A DNA stretch of 27,864 bases from Candidatus Methylomirabilia bacterium (lineage in GTDB: Bacteria; Methylomirabilota; Methylomirabilia; Rokubacteriales; CSP1-6), in assembly GCA_041493815.1 (NCBI GenBank), contig JBGPZN010000001.1, positions 1 through 27,864 of the forward strand, written 5' to 3'. The position numbers and the translations under genes are program-made. The notes beneath the pieces were generated by a model. That model ran no database searches. It worked only from the letters and a program-made list of their open reading frames with translations, and was not told the DNA's origin. This document shows, one piece after another, positions 11,662 to 21,440 of the stretch (position 1 is its first letter; the number at the start of each line of letters is the position of its first letter).

Positions 11662-11667
11662 TATAGT
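11662..11667 (+). promoter_or_regulatory. Putative -10 element (TATAGT) for the UxaA-family gene
   Basis: TATAGT about 31 nt before ATG 11699, followed by AGGAGG SD. Confidence 0.45.
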
Positions 11668-11698
11668 GGAGCCTCCATCGCGAGCCAGGAGGGCAGGC

Positions 11699-13246
11699 AT
11701 GGCCACGTTTCCGCTGACCGACCGCGCGATCCTTCTCCGCCCCGACGACGACGTCGCCATCGCCAAGAAGGAGCTGGCCGCCGGCACCGTGCTGGAGGAC
11801 GGCGCGGCGCGCATCGAGATGCGCGCGGACGTCAAGCCCGGCCACAAGGTCGCGCGGCACGCCGTTCAGCGTGGCGACCCCGTGCGCCGCTACGGCCAGG
11901 TGATCGGCTTCGCCACCCAGGACATCGCGATCGGCGACCACGTGCACAGCCACAACCTCGACATCGGCGAGCTCTCGACCGACCGCTACGAGGTCGGCGT
12001 GGACGTCACGCCGGTCGACTTCTACCCGCCCGATCAGATGCGCTACTTCGACGGCTACAAGAGGGAAGACGGCAGAGTAGGAACTCGAAACTACGTCGCC
12101 ATCGTCTCGGGCGTCAATTGCTCGGCCAGCGTCAGCCAGTTCGTGAAGGACAAGTTCCGCGATGTCCAGCGCGACTTTCCCAACGTCGACGGCGTGCTGG
12201 CGATCACCCACAAGTCCGGCTGCGGCACCAAGCTCTTCGGCGAGGACCACATGGCGCTGCAGCGGGTGCTGGCCGGCTACGCCAAGCATCCGAACGTGGC
12301 TGCCTACATCGTGATCGGGCTGGGCTGCGAGGTGAACCAGGCGGCGGTCATGATCGATCGGCAGAAGATGTCGGTGCCGGGCCACGCCGAGCGCAAGCCG
12401 TTCCTGGTCAACATCCAGGAGGCGGGCGGCATCAGGAAGACCGTCGATCGGGCGGCGGCCGAGGTGGCCAAGCTGCTGCCGTTCGCCAACGAGGCGCGGC
12501 GCACGAAGCAGCCGGTGTCGGAGCTGACGCTGGCGACGAACTGCGGGGGCTCCGACGGCAACTCCGGCATCACCGCCAACCCCGCGCTCGGCTGGGCGGT
12601 CGACGAGCTGGTGCGCTACGGCGGCACCGGTGTGCTGGCCGAGACGCCGGAGATCTACGGCGCCGAGCACCTGCTGATCCGCCGCGCCATCAACGAGGGC
12701 GTCGCCAAGAAGCTCGTCGATCGCTACAAATGGTGGGAGTGGTACTGCCGCGGCATCGAAGCGATGGACAACAATCCCGCCCCGGGGAACAAGGCCGGCG
12801 GTCTCACCACCGTCTTCGAAAAATCCCTGGGCGGTGTCTCCAAGGGCGGTACCACGCCGATGATGGACGTCTTCCAGTACGGCGAGCCGATCACCACGCG
12901 AGGCTTCGTGTTCATGGACACGCCCGGCCACGATCCGGTGTCGATCACGGGATTGGTCGCGGGCGGCTGCAACGTCATCTGCTTCACGACGGGGCGCGGC
13001 TCGGTGTTCGGCTGCAAACCGGTGCCGTCGATCAAGCTGGCGACGAACTCGCTGATGTACCGCCACATGCAGGAGGACATGGACATCAACTGCGGCGTGA
13101 TCCTCGAGGGCACACCGCTGCCGACGGTCGGGCGTCAGATCTTCGAGGAGATCGTCGCGGTGGCCTCCGGCAAGCGCAGCAAGAGCGAGCTCTCCGGCGT
13201 CGGCGAGGAGGAGTTCGCGCCCTGGATCATCGGGCCGGTGATGTGA
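11699..13246 (+). CDS. UxaA/GarD-family dehydratase (N-terminal SAF domain plus catalytic domain)
   Basis: DDVAIA, GHKVA, RYGQVIG, HVHSHN; DGRVGTRNY, GCG, GLGCE, NCGGSD, ETPEIYGAE, NPAPGNKAGG, FTTGRG. Substrate (altronate, galactarate, sulfolactate) not determinable. Confidence 0.9.
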   Translation: MATFPLTDRAILLRPDDDVAIAKKELAAGTVLEDGAARIEMRADVKPGHKVARHAVQRGDPVRRYGQVIGFATQDIAIGDHVHSHNLDIGELSTDRYEVGVDVTPVDFYPPDQMRYFDGYKREDGRVGTRNYVAIVSGVNCSASVSQFVKDKFRDVQRDFPNVDGVLAITHKSGCGTKLFGEDHMALQRVLAGYAKHPNVAAYIVIGLGCEVNQAAVMIDRQKMSVPGHAERKPFLVNIQEAGGIRKTVDRAAAEVAKLLPFANEARRTKQPVSELTLATNCGGSDGNSGITANPALGWAVDELVRYGGTGVLAETPEIYGAEHLLIRRAINEGVAKKLVDRYKWWEWYCRGIEAMDNNPAPGNKAGGLTTVFEKSLGGVSKGGTTPMMDVFQYGEPITTRGFVFMDTPGHDPVSITGLVAGGCNVICFTTGRGSVFGCKPVPSIKLATNSLMYRHMQEDMDINCGVILEGTPLPTVGRQIFEEIVAVASGKRSKSELSGVGEEEFAPWIIGPVM

Positions 13247-14666: not shown

Positions 14667-15683
14667 TCACTTCAGCCCTTTTACCTTCGGGATCCGGGCC
14701 GGGATCCGCGCGATGGTGTGGCGCTGCACGTCGGCCGCCCACTGCGCGTCCACGGCCGGGAAGCCGAAGAGCCTCAGGTCGAGCGACAGGTTCGTGATGT
14801 AGATGTGGTGTCCGTGACGCACGAGGCTGGCCGGGAACAGCAAGCCGATCGGCTCGCCGTGACGATTGATGCCGTCGAAGTCGCCGAGCTTGGCGACGAC
14901 CCGGCCCGACGCGTTCAGGACGACGATCTCGTCGGCCTGGTTGGCGGCGATCCAGAGGTTGTCGTCGTCGTCGATGATCAGGCCGTCGCAGCCATTGATG
15001 CTGTAGGCGAACGCCGTCGGGGCGCTGGCGTTGCCGCCGGCGACCGGAATGCGGACGACGCTGTCGCTGCCGGTGTTGCACACGAACAGCGCGTCACCGG
15101 CGTTGTTGAACGCCAGGCCGTTGGCACCGAACGGCGGCACCCCGGCGGTCGTCAGCAGGGGATCGGTCACCCACGCGGTCGGTGCGCCGCCGCCAGGCCC
15201 CGTCCGCCAGATCGTGCCCTGGAACGAGTCGGAGATGTACACGTTGCCGGCGTGGTCGAACGTGAGCACGTTGGGGCCGGCGTTGGCGCCGCCGGGAATC
15301 GTGGTGAAGACGCTGGAGGCGCCGGTGAAGGGATTGACCGCGAGGACCTGCTTGCCGCCGAAGTCGATCACGAGCAGGGTGCCGGTGTGCGGGTGGAACG
15401 CGAGGTCGAGGAGCAGGTTGCTGGAGTTGGCGACCTTCACGTGGTGAAGCAAGTGTCCCCGGGGACCGAAGACGAGCAGGTCCCCCGGGCCGCCCGCCTT
15501 GGTGACGTCGAACGTGGTGACGTAGATGTGCCCGTGGCGGTCGGCGGTGATGCCCTCGGGGTTGTGGGTGCCGGCCGGCAGCGTCGCGAACGTCTCGACG
15601 TGGCCGCGTTCCCAGGCCTGGGCGGGGGTGCCCGGCGCGACCAGGAGCAGTACCACGGCGGCGATAGTTTTCGGCAGCGTCAT
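14667..15683 (-). CDS. Secreted SMP-30/gluconolactonase/LRE family beta-propeller protein
   Basis: Signal peptide (AQA-W), NPEGITAD, GPNVLTFD.GNVYISDS, GANGLAF, GCDGLIID; GGAGG SD. Confidence 0.85.
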   Translation of the reverse strand: MTLPKTIAAVVLLLVAPGTPAQAWERGHVETFATLPAGTHNPEGITADRHGHIYVTTFDVTKAGGPGDLLVFGPRGHLLHHVKVANSSNLLLDLAFHPHTGTLLVIDFGGKQVLAVNPFTGASSVFTTIPGGANAGPNVLTFDHAGNVYISDSFQGTIWRTGPGGGAPTAWVTDPLLTTAGVPPFGANGLAFNNAGDALFVCNTGSDSVVRIPVAGGNASAPTAFAYSINGCDGLIIDDDDNLWIAANQADEIVVLNASGRVVAKLGDFDGINRHGEPIGLLFPASLVRHGHHIYITNLSLDLRLFGFPAVDAQWAADVQRHTIARIPARIPKVKGLK

Positions 15684-16900
15684 GGCGAACCTCCCTGAAC
15701 ATCGTCGGTCGGGGAGCCGCCCAGCGCGCCCGATGCGCGCAGGGCGGTGATGCGGGCCGGATCATACTGCAGGAGCCGTCGCAAGATCTCGTCCGTGTGC
15801 TGACCCAGGCGCGGGGCCGGCGCCGGCGCGCCGGTCGGGCCGGCGGTCCGCACCGGCGAGGCCACCTCGCGCAGCACGCCGAGCTCCGGATGCTCGACCT
15901 CGACGATCATGCCCCGCGCGCGCACCTGCTCGTCCGCGAGGGCCTGGGCGATCGTGTTGACGGGCGCGCAGGGGACGCGGCCGCGCAGGCGCGCGAGCCA
16001 CTGGGCCGTCGTGCGCTCGGCGAAGCGCGCCTTGAGGATCGGCATCAGCGCGTCCCGGTGGGCGAGGCGGGCGGTGAAGGTGGCGAAGCGCGGATCACGA
16101 CCGACCTCGGGCAGCTCCATCGCGTCCGCGAGGCTCTGCCAGAACTTCTCCTTGTTGCAGAAGACGACGAGCCAGCCGTCGCGGGTGGGGAAGTTCTGGG
16201 CCGGCACCAGCGACTGGTGGCCGGAGTCGGCCACGCGATCGGCCTGCCAGTCGCGGTTCAGCGCCCAGATCGCGAAGTAGGACAGCATGCTCACCGCGGT
16301 GTCGAGCAGCGAGATGTCGATGTCGCGCCCGACGCCGGTGCGCTGGGCGTCCCACAGCCCGGCCAGCAGCGCGGCCATCGAGGCGTAGCCGCCGGCGAAG
16401 TCCACGACCGACACGCCGCACTTGCCCGGCGGCCCGTCGGGCTCGCCGGTGACCGACATCCAGCCCGCGTAGCCCTGGATCAGGTAGTCGAAGGCGGGCT
16501 CGGCCGCCCGGGGGCCGGTGGCGCCGAAGCCGGACAGCGAGCAGCAGACGACGGCGGGATTGACGTCGCGCAGCGCCGCGTAGGTGAGGCCGAGCTTGGC
16601 CGGCAGATCGCCGCGCAGGTTGTTGTACACGGCGTGGGAAACACGGACCAGGTCGTGCAGGATGGCCTGGCCGTCGGGATGCTTGAGATCGAGCGTGAGC
16701 GACTTCTTGCCGCGATTGAACGACTGGAAGTAGAGCGAGTCGCCGTCGGCCGCGTACGGCCCCACGTAGCGAGCGACGTCGCCGCCGACGGCCGGATCCT
16801 CGACCTTGATGACCTCGGCGCCCAGATCGGCCAGCAGCTGGGTGCCGAAGGGCCCGGCCCCGAACTGCGAGACGGTGACGATCCGCAGCCCGTCCAGCAT
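15680..16900 (-). CDS. Family III CoA-transferase (CaiB/BaiF)
   Basis: LDGLRIV...AGPFGTQLLADLGAEVIKVEDP.GD, FNRGKKSL, SLSGFG.GP, VVDFAGG (catalytic Asp), APRLGQHT; stop overlaps next ATG. Confidence 0.93.
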   Translation of the reverse strand: MLDGLRIVTVSQFGAGPFGTQLLADLGAEVIKVEDPAVGGDVARYVGPYAADGDSLYFQSFNRGKKSLTLDLKHPDGQAILHDLVRVSHAVYNNLRGDLPAKLGLTYAALRDVNPAVVCCSLSGFGATGPRAAEPAFDYLIQGYAGWMSVTGEPDGPPGKCGVSVVDFAGGYASMAALLAGLWDAQRTGVGRDIDISLLDTAVSMLSYFAIWALNRDWQADRVADSGHQSLVPAQNFPTRDGWLVVFCNKEKFWQSLADAMELPEVGRDPRFATFTARLAHRDALMPILKARFAERTTAQWLARLRGRVPCAPVNTIAQALADEQVRARGMIVEVEHPELGVLREVASPVRTAGPTGAPAPAPRLGQHTDEILRRLLQYDPARITALRASGALGGSPTDDVQGGSP

Positions 16901-16976
16901 CGCTGCTGGAGCGGGTGCCGCGAGGCCGGCGCGTGACGTGGGTGGCCTGCTCGAGGAGCGCGAGGCTGCGTTGGCC

Positions 16977-17465
16977 TTACCGATCTTTTTCAAGGGCCTG
17001 CTCGCCGAGCGTGGCGTGGTTCTTCTTGGGGATGAGCGCGGTCCGCGTGAACGTCATCACGCGCTCGCGGCGCTGGTTGCTCACGCGCGTCTCCACGCTC
17101 ACCGTCCCCCGGTCGCCCTGCCGGGACTCGCGCGTGGCCAGGACTGTCGACTCCGAGTAGAGCGTGTCGCCGATGAACGTCGGGGCCAGGTGGACGATCT
17201 TCTCGATCTCGAGGTTGGCGATCGCCTTGCCGGAGACGTCGGCCACCGTCATGCCGATGCCGATCGAGAACACCAGCGGGCCCAGCACCAGCCGCTGGCC
17301 GTGCTGGGTGTGGGTGGCCGCGTAGTGGGCGTCGCTGTGCACCGGGTGCTGGTTCATCGTCAGCAGCGCGAACCACGTGCAGTCCGCCTCGCTGATCGTC
17401 CGTCCCGGCCAGTGCTTCATCACCTGGCCGACCGCGAACTCCTCGAAGTACCGTCCGTACGCCAT
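16977..17465 (-). CDS. MaoC-like (hotdog fold) dehydratase/hydratase
   Basis: GRYFEEFAVGQ...GRTISEAD..WF..LTMNQHPVHSD...HLAPTFIGDTL; ATG 17465. Confidence 0.9.
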   Translation of the reverse strand: MAYGRYFEEFAVGQVMKHWPGRTISEADCTWFALLTMNQHPVHSDAHYAATHTQHGQRLVLGPLVFSIGIGMTVADVSGKAIANLEIEKIVHLAPTFIGDTLYSESTVLATRESRQGDRGTVSVETRVSNQRRERVMTFTRTALIPKKNHATLGEQALEKDR

Positions 17466-17596
17466 CAGCGTGGACCGAGCGCGTAGAGGAAGGCGAGGAG
17501 GCCGGCGCCGCCCAGGATCGTGCGCGTCACGTAGAGCGCCCACGACGCGAACATGATGGCGCGGATCAGCGCCGCGGTGGGGAACACGCCCGTCAC
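17465..17596 (-). CDS. Small hydrophobic protein (43 aa), unannotated
   Basis: MTGVFPTAALIRAIMFASWALYVTRTILGGAGLLAFLYALGPR; GTG overlaps ACAD stop (GTGA) and its TGA overlaps the MaoC ATG (TGATG); GC3-rich codons. Confidence 0.7.
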   Translation of the reverse strand: MTGVFPTAALIRAIMFASWALYVTRTILGGAGLLAFLYALGPR

Positions 17597-19785
17597 GTGG
17601 TGGCCACCGCGCGCGCGGCCACGTCCCGGCGCAGCGAGTCGTCGTCGAGCGGAACGAAGGCGAGCCGCGCGGCGTCGCGGTAGAAGCGCTCGACGGGGAA
17701 CTCGCTGACGTAGCCGTAGCCGCCGTGGATGCGCATCGACTCCAGCGTGGCGTCGGCGGCGACCTTCGCCGCCGCCAGCCGCGCCATCGCCCCGGCCGCC
17801 GGGTCGAGCGGCTGGCCCTCCCCGGCGTGATAGGTGAGCAGGCGGGCGGCGGTGATCCCCGTGGCCATGTCGGCGAGCTTGAGCTGCACGGCCTGGTGCT
17901 GGCAGAGCGGCTGCCCGAACGTGCTGCGTTGCTGCGAGTAGCGCAGCGCCGCCTCGAAGGCGGCCTGGGCCAGTCCCACCGCGACCGCCGCCGTGGCCAC
18001 GCAGGCGGCGCCGAGGACCTGCGCCGCCGCGTCGCCCCCGAGGACCAGCGCGGGCCGGACGCCGTGCAGGCGTAGCACGCAGGGGTCGAGGCCACGGGCG
18101 CCGATCGTCGCCTCGGGCTCACCGGGATCGAGACCCGGCGTCCCGCGCTCGACGAGCGCCAGCAGCGGACCCTCACCCTCGGCGACCGCGCGCAGGAGGA
18201 CGACATCCGCGCGCGGCGCGTTGTCGGCGAGCGCGGTCGCGCCGTGCAGCGTCCACGCGCCCGCGTCGCGACGGGCCGTGACGTCGCCGCCGAGCACGGT
18301 CGTGGCCATCCGCTCGCCGCGGGCCAGGGCGGGCAGGCGGGCCTCGCGCTGGGCCGGGGCCGCGAAGCGCTCGAGCGCCCAGGTGGCGATCAGATGGCCG
18401 GCGGCGGCCGCCCCGACGGTGGTCCAGCCCCGCGCGACTTCCTCCAGCAGCATCGCGGTGGCGCCGAGGTCGAGGCCGAGGCCGCCGCGCGCCGGATCGA
18501 CGACGGCACCCAGCAATCCCAGCTCGGCGAGCTCGTGGACGATCGCGGCCGGGTAGCGACCGGCCGCCTCGTGCTCGGCCACCACCGGGACGAGCGACGT
18601 GTCCACGAACTGGCGCACCGCCAGCACGATCTGCCGCCGCTCCTGGGACTCGCCCTCGCGCGAGGTGAGCGCGCCCAGCCGCTCGCCGTAGCGCTCGACG
18701 AGCTGGCGGGCGATGAGCGTGCGCTGGATCTCGTTGGTGCCCTCCCCGATGATCATCAAGGGCGCGTCGCGGTAGTGGCGCTCGACGGTGTGACGCTTCA
18801 GCGTGCCCGTCTCGCCGTACACGCGCATGGCGGTGACGGCCATCGCATACGCGGTCTCGGAGGCGTAGAGCTTGGCCATGCCGGCCTCGAGGTCGCACCG
18901 CTCGCGCCGGTCCTTCATGCCGGCGGCCCAGTAGGTGATGAGCCGCGCGGCCTGCACGCCGGTGGCCAGATCGGCCAGCGCCGGCGGCGGCGCGTCGCTG
19001 GCCCGCGCGCGATCGAGCGCGTCCTCGTAGGCGGCCTGGGCCACGCCGACGCAGCGGGCGGCGATGTTGATGCGGCCCGTCTCCAGCCCGCTCATCACCT
19101 GGCCGAAGCCGCGGCCCTCGAGCCCGCCGACCAGGTTGGCGGCGGGCACCGCGCAGTCCTCGAAGAGCAGCTCCACGGTGTCCACGCCCTTGTAGCCGAG
19201 CTTGGCCAGCGATTTCCCCACGCGGAAGCCCGGGTGGCCCTTCTCGACGATGAAGCAGGACATGCCCCGGTGGCGTGGCTGCGCGCGCGGATCGGTCACC
19301 GCCAGCAGCGCGAAGGCGTGGCCCTCGCGCCCGTTGGTGATGAACATCTTGCTGCCGTTGAGCACGTAGTGGTCGCCGTCGCGGCGGGCGGTGGTGCGGA
19401 TGGCCTGCACGTCGGAGCCCGCGTGCGGCTCGGTCAGGCAGAGGCCGCCGCGCGCCTGCCCGGCGGCGAAGCGCGGCAGGAGGCGGCGCCGCTGCTCCTC
19501 GGTGCCGTGGTGCAGGACGATGAGCGTGGCCATCGTGTGGCTGTTGATCACGCCGGCCAGCGACATCCAGCCGCGGCACAGCTCCTCGATGAGGCGCGCG
19601 TAGGTGCTCACGGCGAGCCCGAGGCCCCCGTACTCGGCGGGGACCAGCGCACCGAACAGGCCGAGCGCGCGCATGCGCGCGACCAGCGCGTGCGGGTATT
19701 CGTCGGCGTGCTCGAGCGCGGCGGCCACCGGCCGCACCTCGTCCTCGACGAAGCGGCGGACGGCGGCCACGATCGGCGGGGCCAT
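17593..19785 (-). CDS. Tandem (fused double-domain) acyl-CoA dehydrogenase, 730 aa
   Basis: Domain 1: LTEPHAGSD, GSKMFITNG, IGEGTNEIQR; domain 2: RQFV..., RSTFGQPL, HGGYGY..ERFYRDA. Start ATG 19785. Confidence 0.9.
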   Translation of the reverse strand: MAPPIVAAVRRFVEDEVRPVAAALEHADEYPHALVARMRALGLFGALVPAEYGGLGLAVSTYARLIEELCRGWMSLAGVINSHTMATLIVLHHGTEEQRRRLLPRFAAGQARGGLCLTEPHAGSDVQAIRTTARRDGDHYVLNGSKMFITNGREGHAFALLAVTDPRAQPRHRGMSCFIVEKGHPGFRVGKSLAKLGYKGVDTVELLFEDCAVPAANLVGGLEGRGFGQVMSGLETGRINIAARCVGVAQAAYEDALDRARASDAPPPALADLATGVQAARLITYWAAGMKDRRERCDLEAGMAKLYASETAYAMAVTAMRVYGETGTLKRHTVERHYRDAPLMIIGEGTNEIQRTLIARQLVERYGERLGALTSREGESQERRQIVLAVRQFVDTSLVPVVAEHEAAGRYPAAIVHELAELGLLGAVVDPARGGLGLDLGATAMLLEEVARGWTTVGAAAAGHLIATWALERFAAPAQREARLPALARGERMATTVLGGDVTARRDAGAWTLHGATALADNAPRADVVLLRAVAEGEGPLLALVERGTPGLDPGEPEATIGARGLDPCVLRLHGVRPALVLGGDAAAQVLGAACVATAAVAVGLAQAAFEAALRYSQQRSTFGQPLCQHQAVQLKLADMATGITAARLLTYHAGEGQPLDPAAGAMARLAAAKVAADATLESMRIHGGYGYVSEFPVERFYRDAARLAFVPLDDDSLRRDVAARAVATT

Positions 19786-19794
19786 GGCGAGGGG

Positions 19795-19804
19795 ATAGTA
19801 CAAT
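19795..19804. promoter_or_regulatory. Overlapping divergent -10 elements (TACTAT minus, TACAAT plus)
   Basis: ATAGTACAAT in a 29-bp gap between ATG 19785 (minus) and ATG 19815 (plus); no SD for either. Confidence 0.45.
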
Positions 19805-19814
19805 GAAAGCGAGC

Positions 19815-21440
19815 ATGTCCCCGGACGACCTCGTCCTCTTCCTGCAGCGCGGGCTCGACCGGCTCGTGCGCCGTCTCCGTCTCGGCCGCGCTCCCGTCCC
19901 CGGGCGCTGCCGGCTCCTCGTCGTGCAGATCGACGGGCTCTCGCACGCGGTGCTGGAGCGCGCCCTGGCCGAGGGCCGCATGCCGTTTCTCCGGCGGCTG
20001 CTCCAGCGCGGGGGCTGCCAGCTGCATCCGATGTCGGTGGGCCTGCCGACCTCCACGCCGGCATTTCAGATGGCGGCCATGTACGGCGTGTCGCCCGACA
20101 TTCCCGGCTTCCACTACCACGACAAGCGCCGGCGGGCCGACGTCTACTTCCCACGCGCGGGCGACGCCGCCCACGTCGAGGCCACCCAGGCCGCCGGCCG
20201 CCGCGGCATCGTCACCGGCGGCAGCACCTATGGCTGCGTCTTCACGGGCGGCGCCGACAACAACTTGATGACCTTCGCGATGCTCAAGCGCCCGTCGGGC
20301 GCCGGCCTGCTCTGCGCGCTGTCGGCCGTGGTGGTGTTGACGTGGGTCGCCATCAAGAGCCTGGCGATCTCGGCGCTGGCGATCGGGCGCGCGCTGCTCG
20401 CGCTCGTCGCCGATCCGCTCGGCGCGCCGCGGGGCTGGAAGCTGCTGGCGCTGAAGGTCGGCGTGTCGGTGTGGATCCGCGAGCTGTTCACGCTGTCGGC
20501 CGCGCGCGACATCTACGCGGGCGCCCCGGCCATCTACGTCAACTACCTCGACTACGACATCTTCGCCCACGCCTGGGGACCGCGGCACCGCCGGGCCCTG
20601 CGCTCGCTGCAGCCGGTGGACGCCTCGCTCCGGCAACTGTGGCGGGTGGCCCGGCGCGTGCCCGAGCACCGCTACGACATCTACCTGCTGGCCGATCACG
20701 GCCAGGCGCACTGCACGCCGTATGACAAGCTCAACGGCGGCCGCCGCATCGAGCGCCTGCTCTTCGAGGATTTCCTCACGCCGGCCGGGGCCCACGAGGT
20801 GGCGCCGGGCCGGCCGGGCAGCCACCGGCTGGCCAGCGGCATCAAGGCGATCCGTAGCGGGCGCGAGCCGGGTGTCGTGCAGCGGTTCATCAACTACCTC
20901 GAGCAGGATTTTCCGTGGCTGCTGGGCGAGGTGAAGGAGGCGCACGAGCAGGGCGGCGTGCGCGTCATCGCGGCCGGCCCCAACGCGTTCGTCTACTTCC
21001 TGGACGACCCGCTGCCGCTGAGCCTGGAGCGGATCGACGAGCGTTTTCCAGGCCTGGTCGACGACATCGCGCGCAGTCGCGGCATGGGCTTCGTGCTGGT
21101 CCGCTCGGCGCCCGGGCCCCTCTGCGTGTGGCGCGGCAAACGCTATCGCGTGGACGAGCTCGGCGAAGGCCCGTTCGCCGGACGCGTCGACCTCGAGCTG
21201 GTCAAGGCGGGGATCCGCGACCTGATGGCGATGCCGAGCGCCGGCGATCTGGTCCTCTACGGCCTCGAGGCGCCGAACGGCCACGTGACGTTCGTCGGCG
21301 AGGTCGGCGCCCACGCCGGCCCGACCGAGGACGAGATGCGCACGTTCGTCGTGACGCCGCCCGGCGTGACGCTGCCGGGGCCGATCACCCATCCGCTGCA
21401 GCTCTATCCCCACTTCGCGCGATACCAGGACGCCGCGTGA
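19815..21440 (+). CDS. Alkaline phosphatase superfamily protein (type I phosphodiesterase/NPP-like) with internal hydrophobic segment
   Basis: QIDGLS, PTSTPAFQ (Thr nucleophile), DYDIFAH, ADHGQ, HAG metal-ligand motifs. Alternative ATG at 19803. Confidence 0.85.
   Translation: MSPDDLVLFLQRGLDRLVRRLRLGRAPVPGRCRLLVVQIDGLSHAVLERALAEGRMPFLRRLLQRGGCQLHPMSVGLPTSTPAFQMAAMYGVSPDIPGFHYHDKRRRADVYFPRAGDAAHVEATQAAGRRGIVTGGSTYGCVFTGGADNNLMTFAMLKRPSGAGLLCALSAVVVLTWVAIKSLAISALAIGRALLALVADPLGAPRGWKLLALKVGVSVWIRELFTLSAARDIYAGAPAIYVNYLDYDIFAHAWGPRHRRALRSLQPVDASLRQLWRVARRVPEHRYDIYLLADHGQAHCTPYDKLNGGRRIERLLFEDFLTPAGAHEVAPGRPGSHRLASGIKAIRSGREPGVVQRFINYLEQDFPWLLGEVKEAHEQGGVRVIAAGPNAFVYFLDDPLPLSLERIDERFPGLVDDIARSRGMGFVLVRSAPGPLCVWRGKRYRVDELGEGPFAGRVDLELVKAGIRDLMAMPSAGDLVLYGLEAPNGHVTFVGEVGAHAGPTEDEMRTFVVTPPGVTLPGPITHPLQLYPHFARYQDAA

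Follow-up and report, generated by a model that had tools for sequence, protein, structure and literature searches.

Organization of the fused gene

The window analyzed here is a stretch of 27,864 nucleotides from a Candidatus Methylomirabilia bacterium (order Rokubacteriales; assembly GCA_041493815.1, contig JBGPZN010000001.1, positions 1 to 27,864), and it contains a gene for a fused double acyl-CoA dehydrogenase (ACAD). The frame lies on the reverse strand, begins with an ATG at 19785, ends with a stop codon at 17593-17595 and encodes 730 residues. The longest open reading frame (ORF) around it extends upstream to 20154; the extra part is Arg/Gly-rich, and a database protein 100% identical to the window ACAD is 730 amino acids (aa) long. 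The Pfam N-terminal, middle and C-terminal ACAD domains (PF02771, PF02770 and PF00441) are each matched twice, with E values of 1e-34 to 3e-57. The three-domain alpha-beta-alpha fold of the superfamily is present in two copies per chain, as judged from Pfam, from the secondary structure of an AlphaFold model and from Foldseek matches to many ACADs at a TM score of 0.9. The two units are 33-37% identical to each other, and the solved relative that matches both of them best is FadE3 of Mycolicibacterium smegmatis (PDB 4iv6). More than 100 clusters, 725-776 aa long and 55-93% identical, came out of a whole-protein database search, and the relatives that carry names come from metagenome-assembled genomes (MAGs) of Methylomirabilota/Rokubacteria. 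The gene and its parts, including the motifs that contact flavin adenine dinucleotide (FAD) or carry the catalytic base, are as follows.

17593-19785, reverse strand: fused double ACAD gene, 730 aa, stop codon included (translation)
18688-19785, reverse strand: unit 1, residues 1-366; E 8e-116 to FadE3 (4iv6); catalytic unit, predicted to bind the flavin ring and the substrate
19411-19434, reverse strand: unit 1 TEPHAGSD loop, flavin side of the site
19330-19353, reverse strand: unit 1 SKMFITNG (translation)
18976-19014, reverse strand: unit 1 remnant of the RxxFG loop, DRARASDAPPPAL, with a 10-residue deletion (gap against 4iv6)
18805-18819, reverse strand: unit 1 YGETG, a decayed GGxG turn
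18742-18744, reverse strand: unit 1 codon of Glu348, the catalytic base in IGEGTNEIQR, aligned to GEGTNEIQR of 4iv6
18643-18687, reverse strand: linker, residues 367-381; lowest-confidence stretch of the model, 8 of 15 columns conserved
17596-18642, reverse strand: unit 2, residues 382-730; E 1e-53 to 4iv6; non-catalytic partner, with putative contacts to the ADP side of FAD
18265-18312, reverse strand: unit 2 remnant of the TEP..GSD loop, RMATTVLGGDVTARRD, with a 10-residue deletion (4iv6 alignment and relatives)
18220-18243, reverse strand: unit 2 GATALADN (translation)
17893-17928, reverse strand: unit 2 RxxFG loop, RSTFGQPLCQHQ; FAD role assigned by homology to ChsE and CasC (PMC11153573, PMC8399759)
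17710-17727, reverse strand: unit 2 HGGYGY turn; H687, G688, G689, Y690 and G691 invariant
17638-17658, reverse strand: unit 2 FVPLDDD in place of the catalytic Glu motif; Pro712 where Glu is expected

Complementary loss of active site motifs

Each unit, taken alone, has an incomplete set of active site motifs; a complete set of the catalytic Glu and the FAD contacts is found across units 1 and 2 jointly. When unit 1 is aligned to FadE3, approximately 10 residues are missing exactly at the '...RESFGKPIWQHQ...' loop, and GEGTNEIQR is kept. The alignment of unit 2 shows the reverse: the RxxFG loop and HGGYGY are kept, gaps fall at TEP..GSD, and FVPLDDD stands at the Glu motif. A preliminary description, made from the DNA alone, had proposed just this division, in which domain 1 keeps TEPHAGSD, GSKMFITNG and the Glu motif without RxxFG and GGxG, and domain 2 keeps RSTFG..HQ and HGGYGY without the flavin-side motifs and the Glu. 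All the motifs that it quoted are present in the 730-aa frame at coordinates that were re-checked, and both halves of the pattern are borne out by the 4iv6 alignment and by the relatives. By homology, Arg620, Phe623-Gly624 and Gln631 of unit 2 would contact the pyrophosphate and adenosine of the FAD in the partner site, and R620, F623, G624, H630 and Q631 are invariant in a 66-sequence alignment.

Conservation and rate asymmetry among relatives

Motifs were surveyed in 116 full-length relatives, 105 of which are of the same one-site type as the window protein, and column conservation was tabulated over these 105, a column being counted as conserved when it is at least 95% conserved in the one-site clade. 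The complementary pattern of kept and lost motifs holds in the 105 one-site relatives. Across the 116, the TEPHAGSD, KMF[IV]TNG and IGEGTNEIQR motifs of unit 1 are close to invariant: CLTEPHAGSDV is found in 102, with single changes in the remainder, and IGEGTNEIQR is invariant or almost so. The RYsQQRttFGkPlcQHQ and HGGYGY motifs of unit 2 are likewise invariant or close to it. At the lost positions, the RxxFG loop of unit 1 is deleted and the sequence around it variable in all one-site relatives, whereas the loop is intact in 776-aa orthologues that have two complete sites (see below); the GGxG turn has the one-site consensus hGEaGt, as against HGGYGY in the two-site forms; and in unit 2 the flavin loop is deleted and the Glu region variable. 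Chance does not explain this pattern, given near-invariance at the kept motifs and deletion or variability at the lost ones in 105 one-site relatives.

The two units also differ in how strongly they are conserved as a whole. Unit 1 has 207 conserved columns out of 366 in the one-site clade, and the N-terminal helical domain of unit 2 has 29 out of 109. The remaining domains compare as follows.

Unit 1 beta domain: 70 of 112 columns conserved, mean pairwise identity 84% (one-site clade)
Unit 2 beta domain: 7 of 95 columns conserved, mean pairwise identity 50% (one-site clade)
Unit 2 C-terminal helical domain: 57 of 143 columns conserved, mean pairwise identity 71% (one-site clade)

In nine two-site forms, by comparison, the units are balanced in conservation. 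The invariant residues of unit 2 concentrate at 599-705 in the 66-sequence alignment. The C-terminal helical domain of unit 2 would hold the dimer interface and the ADP-side FAD contacts, and conservation mainly in this domain is what is expected of a partner that is structural and completes the FAD site only.

Predicted structure and a proposed single active site

A structural model, which the preliminary description had suggested as a check, was obtained with AlphaFold2 from the 66-sequence alignment and shows the full chain as a confident single body, with a mean predicted local distance difference test (pLDDT) of 92.3 and a predicted template modelling score (pTM) of 0.93. Low confidence is limited to the linker, where pLDDT falls below 50 at residues 367-370, so that the position of one unit relative to the other is confidently predicted. 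Foldseek matches each unit to ordinary ACADs, with 4iv6 at a TM score of 0.92 over 373 columns, a root mean square deviation of 1.5 Å and 51% identity.

Taken together, these data make it likely that the window protein is a single-chain pseudo-heterodimeric ACAD with one FAD and one active site per chain. In the mechanism that we propose, unit 1 would be the working subunit: it would hold the isoalloxazine of FAD through TEPHAGSD and KMFITNG, contain the acyl-CoA pocket and supply Glu348 as the catalytic base. Unit 2 would pack on unit 1 as the second subunit does in an ordinary ACAD dimer, and would give cross-subunit contacts only, to the ADP part of the FAD of unit 1, through Arg620, Phe623-Gly624, Gln631 and Gly688-Gly691. 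The mirror-image site, site 2, would be abolished from both sides, since unit 2 lacks the flavin loop and the Glu, and unit 1 lacks RxxFG and GGxG. With site 2 destroyed on both sides, one FAD and one active site are expected per chain, and two chains would probably be the equivalent of an ACAD tetramer. What the data show directly is the motif pattern and its conservation, the unequal rates of the two units, the series of orthologues and the conserved neighbours; the FAD stoichiometry, the contact geometry of the units, the oligomeric state and the substrate of the fused ACAD are what we infer.

The preliminary description had likewise read the gene as an internal pseudo-heterodimer with a single FAD and active site, to which it added an enlarged or unusual substrate pocket. 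The first part stands as a prediction: the single site is favoured by the complementary conservation, by the faster evolution of unit 2 (above all of its beta domain), by the confident model and by the published behaviour of ChsE and CasC. The second part finds no support here, as discussed with the substrate below.

It is also conceivable that unit 2, after losing catalysis, gained a role of its own, for instance in docking an electron-transfer flavoprotein (ETF) or the product of the neighbouring hydratase gene, or in regulatory CoA binding. This would account for the 29 conserved columns of its N-terminal helical domain and for G515, G562, R564 and G565 of its beta domain, none of which are FAD contacts, and it would fit with the hydratase gene that follows the ACAD gene in 16 of 22 loci and with a relative, P0159, in which the C-terminal part of an ACAD is joined to a MaoC/mesaconyl-CoA-hydratase domain. 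We nevertheless regard it as rather unlikely, because most of the conserved residues of unit 2 belong to its C-terminal helical domain, where they are expected from the dimer interface and the FAD contacts alone, and because domain and family profile searches detected no new domain or motif in unit 2. Such a role would, moreover, add to the single-site reading and not replace it.

Neighbouring genes and possible substrate

Three genes adjoin the fused ACAD or follow it on the same strand.

16977-17465, reverse strand: MaoC/hot-dog enoyl-CoA hydratase gene, 162 aa, Ich/Mch-like (Pfam MaoC_dehydratas, MC_hydratase)
15680-16993, reverse strand: family III CoA-transferase gene (Pfam CoA_transf_3, E 3e-120)
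19803-21440, forward strand: divergent phosphodiesterase/alkaline-phosphatase-superfamily gene, 545 aa (Pfam Phosphodiest)

The families nearest to the hydratase are RipB/Ich (NCBIfam, 133 bits against a cut-off of 340) and the mesaconyl-CoA/beta-methylmalyl-CoA hydratases, all of them below cut-off. Its matches in the PDB include 8hgn (E 2.7e-26) and Rv0216, whose gene we take to adjoin fadE3 in M. tuberculosis. The gene lies directly downstream of the fused ACAD in the window, and it follows the ACAD in the 16 of 22 related loci counted above. In a plain ORF list it is masked by a longer frame of 409 aa (16977-18206), and its 3' end overlaps the TTG start of the CoA-transferase. The CoA-transferase, which about half of the related loci also have downstream of their fused ACAD, is nearest to the succinate-glutarate, succinate-hydroxymethylglutarate and succinyl-CoA:mesaconate types, below their cut-offs, and also to PDB 9br6; an SMP-30/gluconolactonase-like gene comes next after it. 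The most constant neighbour is the Phosphodiest gene: it adjoins the ACAD in 20 of 22 loci, and in a sister family it stands next to the single-unit orthologue as well.

The hydratase and a CoA-transferase of dicarboxylate type hint at small rather than bulky acids. The fused ACAD would then probably desaturate a short acyl-CoA, possibly carboxylated or branched. More tentatively, and with considerable doubt on our part, the three genes may form a three-step module that acts on a short, possibly carboxylated acid: activation by CoA transfer, desaturation by the fused ACAD and hydration by the hot-dog hydratase.

An alternative view of the substrate, close to the pocket of the preliminary description, is that the second site was lost so as to widen the pocket for a bulky substrate, on the pattern of the steroid enzymes ChsE4-ChsE5. 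What speaks for it is an analogy, in that the characterized one-site ACADs use steroid CoA esters. We consider it improbable and found no support for an enlarged or unusual pocket: unit 1 shows 51-60% identity to short-chain-type ACADs, approximately 70% to its counterpart in the two-site orthologues and approximately 64% to the single-unit orthologues, and the neighbours resemble enzymes of C4-C6 dicarboxylate metabolism. In addition, no steroid-type family reaches its cut-off in the protein, which scores 53 bits against the 450 bits required for the NCBIfam family IpdE2 (NF050027). A scan of the genome gave 44.9 bits for IpdE2 at the fused-ACAD locus and no steroid-type family above cut-off, in a search whose control genomes contain no mycobacterium.

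Several smaller observations concern the surroundings of the gene. The ATG of the ACAD (19785, reverse strand) and that of the phosphodiesterase-like gene (19803, forward strand) are separated by 17 bp (19786-19802), and TACTAT lies 9 nucleotides upstream of the ACAD ATG. This arrangement suggests that the divergent transcripts may be leaderless or nearly so and may share one AT-rich element; a scan for a consensus sigma-70 promoter found nothing. Between the ACAD and the hydratase, a 43-codon hydrophobic ORF (17465-17596, reverse strand) has a GTG that overlaps the ACAD stop (GTGA) and a TGA that overlaps the hydratase ATG (TGATG). We considered this ORF as a gene and rejected it: it was not detected in the related loci, where the spacer varies from approximately 20 to 490 bp, and so it is probably not a gene. 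P0159, the relative mentioned above, is 477 aa long, with its ACAD-family C-terminal part joined to the MaoC/mesaconyl-CoA-hydratase domains, and represents either a further fusion or read-through.

At a greater distance, a gene of the galactarate-dehydratase/altronate-hydrolase family (11666-13246, forward strand; TIGR03248, 341 bits where the cut-off is 731) was compared in eight related loci and shows 81-94% identity among them, well above the conservation of its neighbours. In three related loci, an extra single-unit ACAD, approximately 35% identical to unit 1 and absent from the window, occurs downstream of the fused ACAD (L024, 12493-13500; L025, 11507-12505; L028, 12636-13634), in two of them after the CoA-transferase.

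Integrity and history of the fusion

In a search of 151 sampled genomes of the phylum, the fused ACAD was detected in 69 of the 93 that belong to one family, as a single copy in every genome with a full-length match, and the source MAG of the window also carries one copy. An uninterrupted fused frame is present in 19 of 24 same-family genomes of one sample, in some cases on contigs as long as 1.16 and 3.28 Mb, and 14 named MAGs produced by unrelated studies have it too. The tallies of same-family genomes (the 24-genome sample and the 93) take in two unpublished genomes, G022 and G091, on which none of the conclusions hinges. The preliminary description had allowed that reads might reveal an assembly join of two genes; the intact frame in many independent assemblies, Mb-size contigs among them, excludes such a join. 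That the fusion is an assembly or gene-calling join, or that its second half is a decaying pseudogene remnant, is accordingly most improbable: the window is the whole of a 27.9-kb contig from a MAG that is 82% complete and split into 652 contigs, unit 2 evolves 2-4 times faster than unit 1, and some database entries (P0126 and others) are stand-alone proteins of the size of unit 2, but the same unbroken frame recurs in 14 listed relatives, the two Mb-size contigs among them, and in independent MAGs, the FAD-contact motifs of unit 2 are invariant, the linker is partly conserved, and the short database matches come mostly from contigs of 1-5 kb and are hence fragments.

Six unit 2-sized proteins of 340-371 aa (P0126, P0134, P0154, P0198, P0208 and P0241) lie on contigs of 10-52 kb. 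These could be real split, two-gene versions of the enzyme; a search of genomes across the family with P0126 returned fused frames only, and no exact source was found.

Orthologues at the same locus fall into several forms. Eleven relatives of 776-777 aa make up a two-site and transitional set. The two-site orthologues of 776 aa (the P0078 group; loci L110 and L111), which belong to other genera of Methylomirabilota, contain all the flavin, Glu, RxxFG and GGYG motifs in both units, and their two units are 72% identical to each other, compared with 33-37% in the window protein. They resemble the window gene in their locus and neighbours, in being a two-unit fusion and in occurring as one copy per genome. 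Two members of the set, P0095 and P0096 (the latter at locus L112), carry point substitutions, and no deletions, at exactly the motifs of site 2: unit 1 of this transitional form has 'RPPSDHSG' for RxxFG and 'GGHGS', and unit 2 has 'SEASGGPD', 'GSQMFVTNG' and 'GEGSTELL'. Two-site, transitional and one-site forms share the same neighbours, namely the divergent phosphodiesterase-like gene upstream and the hydratase and CoA-transferase downstream. In sister-family genomes (L123 and L124), a single 383-aa unit adjoins the same divergent gene. In addition, a locus from a third family (L122; G026:C20) carries a two-site fusion whose frame changes near residue 350 of unit 1, at approximately 2835-2850, which would reflect an error in sequencing, a gene that is broken or a programmed shift.

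A careful IQ-TREE analysis of the separated units, with support given as paired values, places the unit 1 sequences of the one-site proteins in one clade (100/99) and their unit 2 sequences in another (100/100). Each of these clades has the matching unit of P0095/P0096 as its sister and falls within the two-site forms, and since the trees of both units agree in this nesting, the two units tell one history. The stem of the one-site unit 2 clade measures 0.51 substitutions per site, compared with 0.15 for unit 1, and the single-unit orthologues of the sister family group as sister to the unit 1 clade (95/92). As read from the sequences, a single fusion was followed by a single loss of a site, both within one Methylomirabilota order. 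A single-unit gene at the locus would have given rise to a two-unit fusion with two complete sites (776 aa), and one site would then have decayed once to yield the 730-aa form now present in most genera of the family.

We lean towards the view that the series keeps, at one conserved locus, every stage of half-site loss after gene fusion. These stages would be the single-unit homomer, the 776-aa two-site fusion, the point-mutated transitional P0095/P0096, and the 730-aa form with its matching 10-residue deletions.

Some points weigh against this overall reading. In structure, a Foldseek search of the PDB turned up no solved chain that covers the two units together (best TMq 0.59), and the canonical ACAD dimer interface that we infer between the units rests on pTM and homology. 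As regards history, unit 2 of the two-site form is 72% identical to its own unit 1 and 74% identical to a single-unit ACAD of Chloroflexota, and in the IQ-TREE analysis it branches with Chloroflexota single-unit ACADs on short internodes. Unit 2 may therefore be a tandem duplicate or a captured xenologue. An earlier suggestion from a quick tree, that unit 2 is an old paralogue, was dropped in view of the careful tree and the identity matrix. As regards function, the substrate proposal draws only on neighbours that score below their family cut-offs, and roughly half of the related loci lack the CoA-transferase.

Comparison with known one-site acyl-CoA dehydrogenases

The design in which a live and a dead ACAD unit share one FAD site within one chain is already known from CasC. 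In Rhodococcus jostii RHA1, CasC is made up of a pair of fused ACAD domains, one of which bears the Glu and the other of which binds FAD, with one active site; the Glu lies in the C-terminal domain and the FAD-binding role in the N-terminal one (PMC8399759). The window protein is similar in having two ACAD domains per polypeptide, one with the Glu and the other, by prediction, for FAD binding. The feature that defines CasC/FadE34-type enzymes (PMC8399759) is found here with Glu348 on unit 1 and Arg620 on unit 2, residues that vary little or not at all among the relatives. The window protein differs from CasC in three respects: its catalytic unit comes first and its dead unit second; it is confined, among the genomes searched, to Methylomirabilota, whereas CasC is actinobacterial and belongs to a steroid/bile-acid cluster; and it has no steroid genes among its neighbours. 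A further example is FadE34/ChsE3 of M. tuberculosis (Ruprecht et al. 2015), which reportedly also combines a live and a dead ACAD unit in one polypeptide, with a shared FAD site.

The comparison of the window gene with CasC draws on the published description of CasC, and a tblastn search of plasmids returned distant ACAD pairs only, with no CasC-like reference. Indirect evidence nevertheless suggests that the fusion arose separately from the actinobacterial CasC lineage, because a single-unit orthologue occupies the same locus in the sister family and because the fusion is restricted, among the genomes searched, to Methylomirabilota.

Other known one-site ACADs are the alpha2beta2 steroid enzymes (ChsE1-ChsE2, ChsE4-ChsE5, IpdE1-IpdE2 and Tcur3481-3483). 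In ChsE, the Glu, the substrate site and the binding of the isoalloxazine belong to the alpha subunit, and the beta subunit binds the ADP-ribose part of FAD (PMC11153573). One FAD and one site per pair of units is common to these enzymes and, as predicted from its motifs, the window protein. The alpha2beta2 enzymes, however, are made of two polypeptides from adjacent genes, whereas the window protein and its relatives are encoded in a single uninterrupted frame, and the gene context of the window ACAD differs from that of the steroid enzymes. Unit 2 matches Tcur3481 (6wy8) with an E value of 7e-22, and FadE3 with 1e-53. FadE3 and other homomeric short-chain-type ACADs, in turn, are single-unit proteins in which every motif is present, so that there is one FAD per subunit, unlike the complementary decay seen in the window units. 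Single-unit relatives with 55-64% identity occur in Dehalococcoidia, Binatia and Myxococcota.

Three things are new: the order of the units, live and then dead, which is the reverse of that in CasC; a probably separate fusion inside one order of soil Methylomirabilota (Rokubacteria); and the survival of orthologues at the same locus in three other states, namely a gene of one unit, the 776-aa fusion with two sites and a transitional form. Genes of this family, now annotated simply as 'acyl-CoA dehydrogenase family protein' or 'AidB-like', could be labelled single-site tandem ACADs.

The characterized one-site ACADs (the ChsE pairs and CasC) act on steroid CoA esters (PMC8399759; PMC11153573). 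The reversed order of the units in the window protein, its ordinary short-chain type and its non-steroid neighbours together weaken the idea that the one-site design is a steroid adaptation. To our knowledge, pairs of this one-site kind were linked until now with bulky steroid substrates, in Actinobacteria and Proteobacteria, and the same solution would have arisen separately in an uncultured soil phylum. Because two-site, transitional and one-site orthologues all exist, they are natural constructs for asking what half-site loss gains. If our reading is true, the series offers a direct test of why one-site pairs evolve, be it for half-of-sites reactivity, for ETF docking or for remodelling of the pocket, and is convergent with the steroid ACADs.

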